The notes below the pieces were generated by a model. The model worked only from the letters and a program-made list of their open reading frames with translations. It was not told where the DNA came from and made no database searches. A stretch of 63,401 nt of DNA, the filler included, from Sluysia triapertura (Eukaryota), in assembly GCA_046118255.1 (NCBI GenBank). It is 4 parts of 4 records of this genome, joined end to end, with 100 filler letters (N's around TTAATTAATTAA, not from the genome) between each part and the next. Parts side by side here need not be neighbours in the genome. Positions count along the whole stretch, not along the records: positions 1 to 22,403 come from JBJNIA010229566.1; positions 22,504 to 35,223 come from JBJNIA010086911.1; positions 35,324 to 51,318 come from JBJNIA010213254.1; 1 more part is not named here. One strand, given 5' to 3'. Below, one piece after another: positions 20,450 through 43,135 of this stretch; the first letter of the stretch is position 1; every line of letters starts with the position of its first letter. The translations under genes and the position numbers were made by a program.

Positions 20450-22033
20450 TCGTGTACCACAAGAAAGGCAATAACGAGACACTGACGTTTGTTTTTCCTA
20501 TTTTCAGGTAGCATATTGAAAGGGGTATGAAAAATTTAAAATGTATTTGAAGGTGCAAAACTTGATAAAAATGTATTATGTGAAAATAACTTTGGATTAA
20601 AGCGACATATTTTTGAAAATTCATACATTGAATGAAAATTATAATATCATTTATAAAAAAAATTGTATTCCTATTTTAATTAATGGAGAAGTTGCAAGAA
20701 ATTATTATTTTAATTTTAAAAGTTTTAACAAAGAATTACATATCAGAGAATAAACGGATAACTATAAACGTATATAGAATGAAGGAATAATTCTAAATCA
20801 GATGTTTATTTGATCGAAAGCTTAGTCATATTACACATTTAAATAGATATGTTGATTGTTATATATATAATAAATAAGATGTATGTGTTGAAAGATATAA
20901 AAGAACGTACAATGTAAAGTTAATTAGTAAAATCAATCATTTTTAGAATATTGAGTATTTGACAAGACTTATCAGACCGAATCTAATGAATGAGTATAGA
21001 TTGTGTGGTATTTATTGATTATAGATTTAGAAATAAATGTGATTAAACATTTACTACATAAGTGAGCTGATTGCGTTTCTAATTTCACAAAAATTGTTAG
21101 AATCGCGAAGCAATAAGTGAAGGGAAAGCCGAGCATTAGATTCGATTCATAACCATTCACTCGACTTATAATTATTTATAAGCACTGTGATAATGATAAT
21201 ATTGAAGAATACGATAATGATTCATAACATACCGACGTATATTTTATAATCTGATACAAAATAGTTTTCAATTTTGTGTCCTACTTAGTATAAGCCATTG
21301 TTGAAAAGCATTTCCACTAGGTTTTGAGAAAATACATTCTAACTAGTTGATTAATTTCTATATATTTATCAATAATATCAATGATTAGATCACTATTACT
21401 ATTATCGCTTCTTATATTATTAACTATAAAAGTACAATTCTAATTAATTGATTATAACCAAAGTGGATTTTCGAACTGTTGTTAAGATGAGACTGGTCAA
21501 CACCATTAGTAAATGATTTAATTATTTTCTTGTCATAAAAATCAATTAATAAGTTTCCATTCTATTTTTATATATTTATTCTGGAATTTTAAATCCGATA
21601 TTAAAACCATTCTCTAACATTTCTTAAACTTATTCTTTTTCGATTAAATTATTTTCTATTTATTGCATTATTTTCATTTTACTTAGATGTAAAATTTTAA
21701 TATTTATATTCATTTCGACGCATTTATCGTGATTTCTAGTTTGATATTTGAAATTCATTATTTTAATAAATACTTCTTTCAATTATATTAACGACGTCTG
21801 TTTTAAATTAATTTCTTTTTTGACATAATTCATAAATATTATAGATTATTTCCATCGAATCATCCAATAATTTACAAATGTCAACAATTTTTATTAACCA
21901 ATTATCTTCATTCATTAACTTGATATTGTGGGGATTTTAAAAGTAAATAAAATCCTTATAGAATAAAATAAAATTTTTTAACGTGAGTCCACCAACGTAC
22001 TAGGCTTACCAATTAGGGCTAACCGTTGGATTT
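20450..22033 (-). mobile_element. Decayed DIRS-like RT/RNase H unit with leader hairpin
   Basis: Minus strand in DIRS order: LENGFNIGFK (~21615-21588, GF.IG pre-RT motif); ..FCEIRNAISSL (~21095); SICYLK..LWYT (RNase H-like, ~20515-20451). No intact YxDD seen. Confidence 0.45.
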
Positions 22034-22403
22034 ATAGAGAAAGATTTTTAAGTAAAGGTGGAATAACTTCCTAAAGTGTTTGTGAATTTAATAGGATACT
22101 CTTGACTTAATAATTTTACTGTTAATTTAGAATTTAAATGCTTATAGCCCAATCTGTTGAGTTCTGGAGGTATTTTAACAAATGGGAGTCAATTCTCTCT
22201 GTAAATAGTATTTTAATAAGATTTATAAAGAATTCGATGTTAACACAAGTATTTTATCAACTGAAAAAATATTATTAAAAGTAGTTTACGTAAATCCTAT
22301 GAAAAGGATTTGTATCAGAATTAAATTCTGATAATAGAAAGCTTTGCTTTAGTAAGGATTTTATATTTGAAGCTATGAAAATTAAAAATAAACTCTTTAA
22401 TAA

Positions 22404-22503
22404 NNNNNNNNNNNNNNNNNNNNNNNNNNNNNNNNNNNNNNNNNNNNTTAATTAATTAANNNNNNNNNNNNNNNNNNNNNNNNNNNNNNNNNNNNNNNNN
22501 NNN
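22404..22503. other. Artificial contig linker N44-TTAATTAATTAA-N44
   Basis: Six-frame stop linker; the identical 100-bp structure occurs three times. Confidence 0.98.
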
Positions 22504-40881: not shown

Positions 40882-42033
40882 ATGGAGTCAATTAAAAACA
40901 TTCGTTTAGATGGTTGTTGTCATTGTTCAATTTATGTTCACACAATTAAAGATTGGCAACATGCTTCAGATAATGAAAAGAAAGACCAAAGTTCATTCGA
41001 TAAAATATGTTCTGAATCAGACGATATGTTAAAAGAAGATTATTTTGGTTCACGGTTGATAAAAAATGAAAATGTCAAAACAAATTCATCGAAATTCGCA
41101 ATAAAACATTATCCTCAAAATCCAACGATTGATATAATGAATACCAATGTAGATGAGTTAATTTATATCTTACAGAGTGTAATTGTTATTCCAAATATAA
41201 GCCTAAGAACAATTGAAAATTTTAAGTCAAATATAGATGTCCTAATAAATTATGGTACTGTCGACAGAACAGACACGAAATTCTTTGACAAACGAGAATA
41301 TAATAATTTGGTTAAATCTCTCATAAGAAAGACCGGTCTAGTTAATAAAAATGTATTGCCAAAGAATAAATTAAAGATTCTGCGATTACGAAAAAGTAAT
41401 TATGACGAAATTCAAGAGAGTCCAAGAAGTTCAATGTCCATTAGTGAAAAGATAAAAATCTTCATGAATTATAAAGGGAATAATAAAAACTCAACAATAT
41501 TACGTACTGATCATGATGATCAATCATTCTTTGATCAATGTAAAACATCATGTCATCGTTCATTCTTGGTTAGTCCTACTATATTAGAAGATTACTATTA
41601 CACGATGTCATTAAGCAAAGATATAATTCCGACTATTGCGTTTCTTTATTTGTTTTGTATTATGCCTGATTTTGTTAGTTTTAAATTCATATATTTATAT
41701 AATTATTTTTTAGTTAATAAGCAACACTACCGGATCAATGAATTGCAACAAGAAGATCACAGTAAAAATGAGATCAAGATTTCAAAATTAAAGAAGACTA
41801 ATGAAGAGTTATCGCAAATTAAACTTATTCGTTTTTTTAGTTATTTAATAAATTATTATAATAGTCGTGTTGTAATTATGATTCATCACTTTAATACCAA
41901 GTTATTGAATGTATCCCGAAACATAACGTATAGATTTAAAATAAGTTTTAACATACGTTTCAAAACGTTTTATGATATTAACAAAACGAGAAACTTTATA
42001 AAATTTGTGAAACAAATTAAATTATACATTTAA
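40882..42033 (+). CDS. Orphan 383-aa ORF; the 3' end may run into a repeat
   Basis: A long uninterrupted ORF is unlikely by chance at this AT content. Several CCAAT/ATTGG motifs upstream (40628-40685). No family recognised. Confidence 0.5.
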   Translation: MESIKNIRLDGCCHCSIYVHTIKDWQHASDNEKKDQSSFDKICSESDDMLKEDYFGSRLIKNENVKTNSSKFAIKHYPQNPTIDIMNTNVDELIYILQSVIVIPNISLRTIENFKSNIDVLINYGTVDRTDTKFFDKREYNNLVKSLIRKTGLVNKNVLPKNKLKILRLRKSNYDEIQESPRSSMSISEKIKIFMNYKGNNKNSTILRTDHDDQSFFDQCKTSCHRSFLVSPTILEDYYYTMSLSKDIIPTIAFLYLFCIMPDFVSFKFIYLYNYFLVNKQHYRINELQQEDHSKNEIKISKLKKTNEELSQIKLIRFFSYLINYYNSRVVIMIHHFNTKLLNVSRNITYRFKISFNIRFKTFYDINKTRNFIKFVKQIKLYI

Positions 42034-42034
42034 T

Positions 42035-43135
42035 AAAATTCGGCAAAACATTCGTAACTCTAATTACAACTTTAGATGTAACTAATGGTGATCCTTATAA
42101 ACGAGAACTAAATCTCGAAACGTATACTTATCAAACAAATTTATTACTCGAATATACGCACTCTATAACAAATTTAAATTCAAAACTACATAATGATAAT
42201 AGTAATACGCCTTCAACAGGAACGAAAACTTCAGATCTATATATTGAACCTCTTTTAAAATTCTTCTTAAAATTTTGTTCAACATCACTCGGCGCATTAC
42301 CACCCATACTCATTTGAAATAATACATCTAATACTCCCAAACCCTTCATCTTACACTACATTTTGGCGATTAATATCCAACATTCGATAAGATCCATTTA
42401 ATAGTTTATTCTCTTAAATCGAACCATAATCATAAACTTACAACATATAAACCACAAAACATTGAATACTGTTTCACAACATCAACAAATATACTTGAAA
42501 CATAGAAAGCACCTACTTCACTTCTTCGAATTAAGTACAACATTTCAAATACACTAATCATCAATCCATAATCATCATTAACACAGAACACCAACACCAA
42601 AACACCAAACAAAATAATCACACAAAACATAGCATAATAATATCTTAAATGTACAGAGAGTTATATTGCAATTGTCATTTTAAATTCAACAAATTATAAT
42701 CTTCACAATAAACCTTTATCCAATATAATTTAATACATAAAACTTGTTGTCAAACATAAAAACTTCAATCAACATCAAAGAATTTACACTAACACTCTTC
42801 AATTCACTTCAAGACTCATATCAAATATTATACCTTCAAAGATTAAGCATACCTAACAATTCTTTCAAACAACCTTTACTCAGAAACTTAGTTTCAAACA
42901 CATTTAAACATGTTAAAATTCTACAAGTTACCAAAATATAATGCAGCTTTAAAGAATTCAGTTTTATGCAATGAAGCAGCAACGATAACTCGAGTACCGT
43001 GTGCCCGTTATCGTTGCTCCTTCGTACATTATCAGTGGCTGTTATTTCATTTTTCATCTTTGTATGTTAGAATAGTCAAGATTGAAAGAGAATATCGTGT
43101 AAAGTATATTTTTAAGAGAATTTATGTAATTATTT
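42035..43135 (+). mobile_element. Decayed DIRS-type YR unit
   Basis: About 1.1 kb, C-rich. KQPLLRNLV..; SF..EAAT at ~42960-42984 (HSFR.GAAT-like); 3' end similar to 40200-40360. Confidence 0.5.

Follow-up and report, generated by a model that had tools for sequence, protein, structure and literature searches.

The window, by which we mean the whole 63,401-nucleotide stretch of Sluysia triapertura DNA that was analysed, contains a group of dead transposons, probably worn copies of an ordinary recombinase-type mobile element in an animal genome. With a probability of roughly 0.6, they are what deletions and 5′ truncation have left of several old DIRS-order (Ngaro/PAT-like) families, which were unsegmented and carried a conserved cis hairpin. 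The initial annotation had proposed a possible segmented DIRS-like element, in which RT/RNase H and tyrosine-recombinase (YR) units share one hairpin leader and are mobilised separately. A DIRS-like origin is plausible, but the segmented organisation is not supported, since one unit (22033) has both zones and another (39545) has a leader together with an RNase H-like frame. The evidence matches simple deletion derivatives, the contrary case named in that annotation itself; neither a full-length copy nor terminal repeats were seen in the window.

The hairpin leader is real and structurally conserved, its fold being kept between families and its sequence changed. Its copies are as follows.

21985..22033, minus strand: hairpin leader copy 1 (pattern, fold, covariance model)
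35166..35215, minus strand: hairpin leader copy 2 (pattern, fold, covariance model)
12728..12783, minus strand: hairpin leader copy 3, whose stem sequence differs and 3′ of which no module was recognised (pattern, fold, covariance model)
50659..50747, plus strand: hairpin leader copy 4, with a long loop (fold, covariance model)
38831..38890, plus strand: hairpin leader copy 5, new and degenerate (covariance model, E=0.026)

When the window was scanned with at most one mismatch allowed, the pattern AT-CC-stem-GG-TG(G/A)ACTC was found on the minus strand at 22031-21985, 35214-35166 and 12781-12728. In its strict form it has three matches in the window versus none in 100 dinucleotide-block shuffles, which bears out the minus-strand motif reported earlier at 22033, 35215 and 12783. 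The plus-strand copy reported at about 50665-50745 is likewise confirmed, as 50659-50747 has the same folding as the minus-strand copies and fits the covariance model. This model, built from four copies (22033, 35215, 12783, 50665), detected one extra leader in the window, 38831-38890(+), which was outside the training set (E=0.026, among 33 matches with E<=10; the calibration is rough). The weaker copies proposed at 4128, 3494 and 14028 do not rise above chance: the candidates at 4123-4171 and 3489-3512 have covariance-model E values of 1.3 and 1.6, and 14028 is absent from the model's matches in the window. Among the leader copies, 38831 included, both sides have changed in 10 of 12 stem pairs, that is, they covary; taken singly, the hairpins are of ordinary stability (z +0.2, -1.1, -1.2, -1.4). 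The GGTCGGCCAA-like words that open the 24600, 39545, 44220 and 46385 units were rejected as leader copies by fold and covariance model; by eye, the one at 24575 sits inside a mariner-like fragment. Twister, HDV-like and pistol ribozymes, the tRNA B-box and 5S were dropped as identities of the leader because the required helices are missing. Rfam scans of the window and two short stretches gave nothing above chance, and the leader patterns had no match in viral contigs and none in metagenome contigs.

The units of about 0.3-1 kb are real strand-biased segments. An absolute GC skew of at least 0.5 occurs in 7 of 211 bins versus a maximum of 1 in 200 shuffles, and guanine makes up 4-8% of the sense strand in seven units versus 14-19% in the neighbouring genes. 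Leader-to-end lengths range from about 0.3 to 1.5 kb. In the 22033 and 38831 units the leader strand turns from balanced to G-poor 600-900 bases past the leader, the span being about 1.5 kb; in the 35215 and 50665 units the leader passes at once into the G-poor zone. The copies are badly decayed, as had been stated from the start, with no intact frame and many small non-triplet indels: homologous pairs differ by 20-54 indels, mostly non-triplet, and their mismatches follow no 3-base pattern (P=0.93, 0.63, 0.48), so no codon-position constraint appears. No young, intact copy of any module is present in the window. Mitochondrial and other genetic codes were tried as an explanation of the stops and left the units closed, and tandem repetition of the units was also rejected.

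The hairpins and a 3′ box are far better preserved than the unit interiors. This, together with the guanine content, is what would be expected of non-autonomous or subgenomic families, whose short RNAs with leader and 3′ module would have gone through many rounds of copying by intact helpers, with loss of sense-strand guanine at the single-stranded cDNA stage and selection on the hairpins only; SIRE is a known truncated, non-autonomous derivative of VIPER (PMC6681497). However, the loss of guanine is limited to the 3′ zone and fits the native composition of one reading frame, the direction of base change can be read only with an outgroup, and no deletion junction shared between any two copies could be pinned down. 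We regard such families as an unlikely source of the units.

The unit behind leader copy 1 has two zones, the first of which recurs nearby.

21150..21984, minus strand: zone 1 of the 22033 unit, with balanced G/C, residual 3-base periodicity and all frames broken (composition, periodicity)
20470..21150, minus strand: zone 2 of the 22033 unit, poor in G along the leader strand (skew; weak recombinase C-terminal match)
19650..20290, minus strand: second copy of zone 1, leaderless (homology z=52 versus shuffles)

The 3-base periodicity of zone 1 resembles that of the genes. The RT/RNase H-like ORF that had been placed directly after leader 22033 could not be upheld: the longest open frame is at most 45 codons, a Pfam search of the unit gave no match, and motif chains were equalled by 15 and 10 of 100 shuffles for RT and by 20 of 200 for RNase H. 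In the 19650-20290 copy, the corresponding RT figures are 78 and 55 of 100. Zone 1 is RT-like by eye only, from its motifs. Nor does it form a separate RT unit, as had been supposed, for it runs on into the G-poor zone, at the end of which a bacterial recombinase C-terminal profile gives a weak match ending at 20471 (reached by 4 of 300 local shuffles, and not significant over the whole window). No G-poor zone follows the 19650-20290 copy.

On the plus strand, the following segments bear most directly on the order of the modules.

39262..39560, plus strand: RNase H-like remnant with many stops (six motifs of DIRS/Ngaro type, correctly ordered within a single frame)
39490..40190, plus strand: G-poor unit 39545 (skew; homology to 42035)
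40200..40340, plus strand: hairpin and box at the 3′ end of the 39545 unit (box z=27)
42045..42965, plus strand: G-poor unit 42035, leaderless (skew; covariance model)
42972..43281, plus strand: 3′ module of 42035, with a 17-pair hairpin, box, AT-rich run and 11-base inverted repeat (hairpin z=-4.7)

The RNase H motif chain at 39274-39514 scores 24.1, the next peak in the window being 15.6, and was reached in 0 of 200 shuffled windows, with a motif set that was picked after the region 39262-39560 had been seen; the remnant has no match in Pfam or the PDB. This RNase H-like frame sits between leader 38831 and G-poor unit 39545, in line and on the same strand. An RNase H sequence upstream of a G-poor segment was found in this unit only, eight other regions tested being not significant, so the earlier statement that the YR-like units have none recognisable upstream fails for 39545 and holds for 24600, 42035 and 44220 (63, 22 and 43 of 200 shuffles). 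The 39545 unit is colinear with 42035 and is shortened by several deletions. One frame of 42035 has 11 stops in 307 codons, versus 24 and 21 in the other frames.

It is also conceivable, though unlikely, that the leaderless G-poor units are 5′-truncated Penelope-like elements (Naiad-type, C-terminal RT) and that only the leader-bearing ones are DIRS-like. Three Penelope thumb motifs lie in one frame at 42522-42711 (1 of 100 shuffles), and the units, whose 5′ ends differ, have a 3′ end in common and finish at (TAA)n tracts. However, the thumb match was first spotted by eye and is one of 24 unit-strand tests, the score of the homologous 39545 unit was equalled by 100 of 100 shuffles, and the RNase H-like frame precedes 39545 in line, while Penelope elements are not known to carry RNase H. 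Penelope-like elements possess a telomerase-like RT and a hammerhead ribozyme in the terminal repeat, the latter absent in Naiads; the Rfam scans yielded no hammerhead family, and a core-word scan stayed at chance (8 versus 2-7). Naiads are often 5′-truncated, lack the C-terminal endonuclease and prefer (TA)n targets (PMC8557442). They thus resemble the 5′-variable, 3′-shared units beside microsatellites in this window (PMC8557442), but differ in that an RNase H-like frame is in line with one unit here and that neither a hammerhead nor a GIY-YIG match was obtained.

The remaining plus-strand units between 24.6 and 46.8 kb are these.

24585..25600, plus strand: G-poor unit 24600, leaderless, adjoining a mariner-like fragment (skew; covariance model)
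25599..25847, plus strand: 3′ module of 24600, with box, (TAA)17 and inverted repeat (box profile)
46385..46832, plus strand: G-poor unit new to this analysis, homologous to 24600, with a weak 3′ box (z=11-12)
44280..44610, plus strand: G-poor unit 44220, with neither leader nor 3′ box (recombinase C-terminal profile)

The leader is not shared by the modules in the way that had been proposed, as most of the supposed YR units are leaderless and cut off by unrelated sequence: it is absent from 24600, 42035 and 44220, three of the four units so named, and from four of the five plus-strand units. The 3′ box occurs at four places (39545, 42035, 24600 and 46385, the last with E=0.61 and itself in the box training set), only one of them in a leader-bearing unit. 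It was not found in the leader-bearing units 22033, 35215 and 50665, whose DNA is not clearly homologous to that of the boxed units (z about 4 at best, over 49 AT-rich bases). Only two units have the 11-base inverted repeat, in each case within the 3′ module. Locally, the recombinase C-terminal profile matches best in 44220 (reached by 1 of 300 local shuffles, and not significant over the whole window), and such matches end at the 3′ ends of the 22033 and 44220 units; against them, an antisense control scored 1 of 30. Crypton DNA transposons have a recombinase alone, no RT/RNase H, and short terminal direct repeats; Pfam gave no Crypton family match, and the RNase H-like frame in line with the 39545 unit argues against this identity.

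Two further leaders are flanked by the following segments.

34400..35165, minus strand: segment after leader copy 2, G-poor toward its end (composition; recombinase-like by eye only)
50280..50597, plus strand: frame of 105 codons with a CCCH zinc finger at its end, just 5′ of leader copy 4 (PF25427)
50745..51040, plus strand: short G-poor segment directly 3′ of leader copy 4 (composition)

The YR-like ORF claimed after 35215 gained no backing, as recombinase identity found no Pfam, PHROGs, PDB or HMM match and the weak local signals lie elsewhere. Recombinase profile tests of this segment were not significant, and one frame of the unit, compared by phmmer with 1.84 billion representatives, returned one repetitive, unrelated protein. 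The upstream context of leader 35215 is lost because it lies 9 bases from an assembly gap; three gaps (22404-22503, 35224-35323 and 51319-51418) lie near leader or unit copies in the window, and the sequence upstream of two leaders is lost in them. The CCCH finger at 50496 matches PF25427 with E=9.1e-5 and 1.7e-5, under the curated cut-off, and its frame may be either gag-like or a host exon. The 50745..51040 segment has no family match.

Broader protein-family searches were consistently negative. Pfam gave no match for 30 stop-read-through frames of five units and no RT, RNase H or recombinase family for 16, 18 and 6 further segments. PHROGs returned unknown families only for 10 segments (E>=0.08), the PDB a single unrelated match for four queries (E=0.26), a word search with alignment of eight segments none at E<=10, and the Atlas no usable match for two open frames; six window frames are absent from the protein collection. 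The stretch was detected in one sequencing run, which may be its source, and no RNA run was listed as containing it. Recombinase profiles, whose references are bacterial and not eukaryotic, found nothing window-wide, hhalign against a bacterial recombinase alignment gave a probability of at most 0.1 in all three cases, and a search outward from bacterial relatives for eukaryotic DIRS reached prokaryotic recombinases and two false leads only. Mariner-like and gag-like remnants in the window were recognised by eye and missed by Pfam, and because of these misses the power of Pfam on such decayed DNA is taken to be low. Since every library search is negative and the G-poor units show no 3-base periodicity, the protein calls could be pattern-matching on AT-rich noise, and the hairpin and G-poor units repeats of another kind. 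This is very unlikely, however, as the RNase H chain of 39545 beats 200 of 200 shuffled windows, Pfam is weak here, and the leader strand is the G-loss strand in all four units having both.

Equally doubtful, to the point of being highly improbable, is the segmented element, with RT/RNase H and recombinase as separate mobile units under a common leader, complementing one another in trans. The direct entry of leaders 35215 and 50665 into a G-poor zone would suit it, as would the leaderless zone 1 copy with no G-poor zone behind it and the action in trans of the DIRS-1 RT (PMC7192593). However, 22033 carries both zones, 39545 joins leader, RNase H-like frame and G-poor zone, the 24600, 42035, 44220 and 46385 units are leaderless, leader-to-end length varies several-fold, and neither an intact frame nor codon constraint was seen. 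It is quite unlikely, too, that DIRS-order modules (RT/RNase H, recombinase, perhaps gag) existed as separate or leader-joined subgenomic units with one hairpin signal and trans complementation, the recombinase being stripped of guanine by repeated single-stranded cDNA passage.

A DIRS-order origin is made plausible by the RNase H-like frame with a G-poor segment behind it, the CCCH finger by one leader, and the weak matches to the recombinase C-terminus where two of the units end. An intact element would have carried, on one strand, leader hairpin, RT, RNase H, recombinase and 3′ structured module. It would have been transcribed and copied into single-stranded cDNA, which would then have been closed through terminal repeats and integrated by the recombinase, a course established for DIRS-1 and presumed here. 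The hairpin would act in cis, as a signal near the 5′ side of the RNA or cDNA, with translation of downstream frames, packaging or end formation as candidate roles. "Leader then RT" and "leader then YR" would be one anatomy from which differing amounts were deleted, and some defective copies may have moved in trans before dying.

In Ngaro elements the gag, RT/RH and YR frames overlap, and decaying copies lose their repeats and have their frames broken (PMC9210276). Ngaro/PAT-like elements resemble the present families in the predicted order of RT, RNase H and recombinase along one strand, in an RNase H that runs into the following zone, in the CCCH finger near one copy, and in degenerate copies with broken frames (PMC9210276; PMC6681497). 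They differ in length, the units here being 0.3-1.5 kb versus 4-6 kb, and in their split direct repeats, which were not seen in the window; among the papers listed by the literature searches, none was found to describe a leader of this kind, with a covarying hairpin and an invariant 9-base tail. DIRS-1 of Dictyostelium makes linear single-stranded cDNA, its RT works in trans, and a 3′ hairpin has been proposed as primer (PMC7192593). It serves as a model of mechanism in these three respects (PMC7192593); inverted terminal repeats with an internal complementary region were not seen here. SIRE, too, is short and derives from a recombinase retroelement, whose terminal cis sequence it retains (PMC6681497), whereas the derivatives here keep long decayed coding remnants of varied length and do not form one homogeneous family.

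Were a segmented retrotransposon truly present, its genome organisation would be new among retroelements, but the evidence from the window speaks against one. What lasts from this analysis is the covarying hairpin, which has a fixed tail and is common to diverged families. Because the cis signals of the DIRS order are poorly known, PMC7192593 describing the reverse-transcription primer as not settled, this hairpin is a concrete candidate signal for intact elements.

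The leader, a hairpin motif in front of several units, is a real cis element with a conserved fold, as follows from a scan against shuffled sequence and from covariation in five copies. It consists of an outer stem, a small bulge, an inner stem, a loop of 15-20 bases with TAA at its end, and a tail of 9 bases. A pattern scan (AT-CC, then a stem of 5 or more pairs, then GG-TGGACTC; up to 1 mismatch allowed) yielded three minus-strand matches (22031-21985, 35214-35166 and 12781-12728) and none in 100 shuffles, bearing out the recurrence described in the initial annotation, and the plus-strand copy placed near 50665 has a like fold at 50659-50747. 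A covariance model trained on these four copies gave 33 matches at E≤10 in the window, training copies included; under its rough calibration, a fifth copy at 38831-38890(+) (19.7 bits, E=0.026) was the only non-training match to stand out. Weaker copies proposed at 4128 and 3494 reached E=1.3 and 1.6, that at 14028 was absent from the matches at E≤10, and none is retained. Across the five aligned copies, pairing holds in 90% of 60 cells and 10 of the 12 pairs changed on both sides, which 0 of 500 column shuffles matched (slid partners pair at 28-45%); because the copies had been aligned by fitting them to the structure, the test is biased in favour of covariation. Individual copies have no unusual fold stability, no Rfam family matches the leader, and its pattern found no match in viral or metagenome contig collections.

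The 1-kb units, earlier called tyrosine-recombinase (YR)-like, exist as strand-biased segments: |GC skew| is at least 0.5 in 7 of 211 300-base bins, against a maximum of 1 in 200 shuffles, and G makes up 4-8% of one strand in seven units versus 14-19% in nearby frames. That the protein calls made for them are a misreading of noise is very improbable. They are not tandem repeats, no alternative genetic code opens their frames, and 3-base periodicity, present in the zone of the 22033 unit (named by its leader) and in two control genes, is absent from them. Interior homology, assessed in 105 unit pairs against composition-matched shuffles, is clear in two, 21150-21984 with 19650-20290 (z=52) and unit 24600 with unit 46385 (z=12); three further pairs among the 105 lie at z of about 4. 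With its 3′ flank, 39545 aligns with 42035 at z=24 and is a colinear copy of it, shortened by several deletions. The 3′ ends of 24600, 39545, 42035 and 46385 form one group (z=27, 9.7, 7.4 and 5.0 among 210 flank comparisons, a microsatellite contributing), and their 3′ box occurs in the window at these four ends only; two units have a 17-pair hairpin there and two an 11-base inverted repeat. Homologous pairs differ by 20-54 indels, mostly non-multiples of three, with no codon-position pattern, and therefore the divergence of the units, or at any rate their decay, took place while they were non-coding. Non-autonomous families with strand-specific loss of G would be another origin for such segments, which we regard as unlikely. 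Hammerhead-core-like words, each one base off, lie at 43035(-) and about 40262(-) in two homologous units, immediately ahead of the 3′ hairpin and on the other strand; the window scan for such words was not above chance and Rfam gave no support.

The initial annotation saw here a segmented DIRS-like retroelement, its RT and YR units being separate, sharing one leader and complementing in trans. Composition on the leader strand, taken in 150-base bins, is balanced or G-rich at the start of the 22033 and 38831 units and G-poor after 600-900 bases, and both units end about 1.5 kb from the leader; the 35215 and 50665 units are G-poor immediately after the leader, and the 12783 unit has no clear zone. 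The supposed RT-only unit, 22033, includes a G-poor segment of the same kind as the supposed YR-only units, of which 39545 is preceded by a leader and an RNase H-like frame and followed by the 3′ module; 24600, 42035, 44220 and 46385 are leaderless and adjoin unrelated sequence. The pattern is that of a single element whose copies have eroded unequally, and not that of a complementary pair of classes. What counts against this reading is that the leader-bearing and boxed units are joined only via the weak fifth leader (38831), that the 35215 leader lies 9 bases from a gap, and that the window holds no full-length copy. Classes of RT units and YR units do not separate in the window, and RT/RNase H and recombinase modules travelling as separate units are a most doubtful alternative.

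The strongest protein evidence in the units is, by sequence, a putative RNase H-like chain at 39274-39514(+), whose six motifs in one frame score 24.1, where the next peak has 15.6 and 200 shuffled windows reach 20.9 at most, the motif set having been picked after this region was seen. No significance was reached in eight other regions, among them the stretches upstream of 24600, 42035, 44220 and 46385, and the statement that no RNase H precedes the YR-like units thus stands for 24600, 42035 and 44220 and falls for 39545. An RT-like ORF after the 22033 leader was not recovered, the RT motif chain being non-significant. A frame that stops 65 bases ahead of the leader at 50665 has a CCCH finger (PF25427, below cut-off) at its end. 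Penelope motifs reached 1/100 shuffles only in 42035, one of 24 tests and post hoc, and a Penelope/Naiad origin of the leaderless units (cf. PMC8557442 and PMC4209133) is improbable.

Pfam matched 0 of 30 unit frames, and 40 additional segments hit none of its RT, RNase H or recombinase families; PHROGs, PDB, Atlas, word search and phmmer against 1.84 billion proteins were all empty for the units. Since Pfam missed mariner-like and gag-like remnants, both called by eye, blank library results have little power. Recombinase references were bacterial only, and neither standard HMMs built from them nor tblastn or hhalign gave a hit in the window. A codon-level profile allowing frameshifts and guanine loss, with author-set parameters, was run on 12 units, both strands, under two models; three units retested against local shuffles gave 1/300 (44220), 4/300 (end of the 22033 unit) and 43/300 (39545), and the putative recombinase matches in 44220 and 22033 both terminate at the unit's 3′ end. 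This profile has no peak above shuffled whole windows, an antisense control of the full-domain profile reached 1/30, and the block version found 0 of 10 units. Among metagenome loci (L021-L091), most of 80 carry a near-uniform recombinase family on AT-rich contigs (23-30% GC), its catalytic end presumably nearer the DIRS type than Cre's.

We put at about 0.6 the probability that the units derive from an unsegmented DIRS-order element. Such an element would first be transcribed, its RNA would be copied into single-stranded cDNA, and this, closed through terminal repeats, would be integrated by the recombinase. The window itself shows the hairpin with its covariation, the composition zones, the homologies and the decay; the family, the recombinase identity and the hairpin's job are what we infer here. 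In the sources, DIRS-1 has a single-stranded cDNA form, its RT acts in trans and priming from a 3′ hairpin has been proposed for it (PMC7192593), Xenopus Ngaro elements combine split direct repeats with gag, RT/RH and YR frames that overlap and have degenerate copies (PMC9210276), and SIRE is a non-autonomous derivative (PMC6681497).

All results come from this window, which is AT-rich and animal (GC mostly 18-30%) and contains microsatellites and four assembly gaps (N runs), besides the following features:
9766-10118, 32560-32770 and 33600-33968, plus strand: three-copy repeat, 73-78% identity, flanking a gag-looking frame (33097-33462)
14222-15205, plus strand: amiloride-sensitive sodium channel (ENaC/degenerin) exon (Pfam PF00858, E=4.7e-20)
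28840-31173, minus strand: WD40 propeller gene, two long frames (Pfam)
40864-42033, plus strand: open frame of 389 codons, stopping just before the 42035 unit
58720-60225, minus strand: open frame of 501 codons, no Pfam match

We take the WD40 gene to resemble UTP4/cirhin and the 501-codon frame to resemble a portion of some very large gene like BIRC6; neither Pfam nor Atlas nor an exact database look-up matched the 389-codon frame. The frame at 33097-33462(+) looks like Gypsy-type gag by eye, Pfam offering no family, and the repeats around it are possibly LTRs of another decayed retroelement. A mariner-like transposase fragment seen by eye at 24230-24590(-), undetected by Pfam, directly adjoins the 24600 unit. 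A GC-richer stretch at about 11990(-), which begins after TTAA and presumably resembles a piggyBac-type terminus, closes the segment that trails the 12783 leader. The most stable 70-base hairpin of the window (40522-40615, -27.5 kcal/mol; weak Rfam microRNA-family scores, E 0.19-0.7) may be either a microRNA precursor or a small element with an inverted repeat, and the second strongest (54671-54760) is a GC-richer, MITE-like inverted repeat. At the filler joins between records (22404-22503, 35224-35323 and 51319-51418), each near a leader-bearing unit, an identical 12-base AT spacer lies between N runs, which suggests that leader-bearing repeats broke the assembly.

The open-licence literature, in its accessible parts, yielded no account of a segmented DIRS element or of this leader hairpin; PMC12440569 concerns an unrelated LTR group. 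The units are probably members, not seen before, of a known kind of element, and the leader hairpin gives it one new, testable cis structure.
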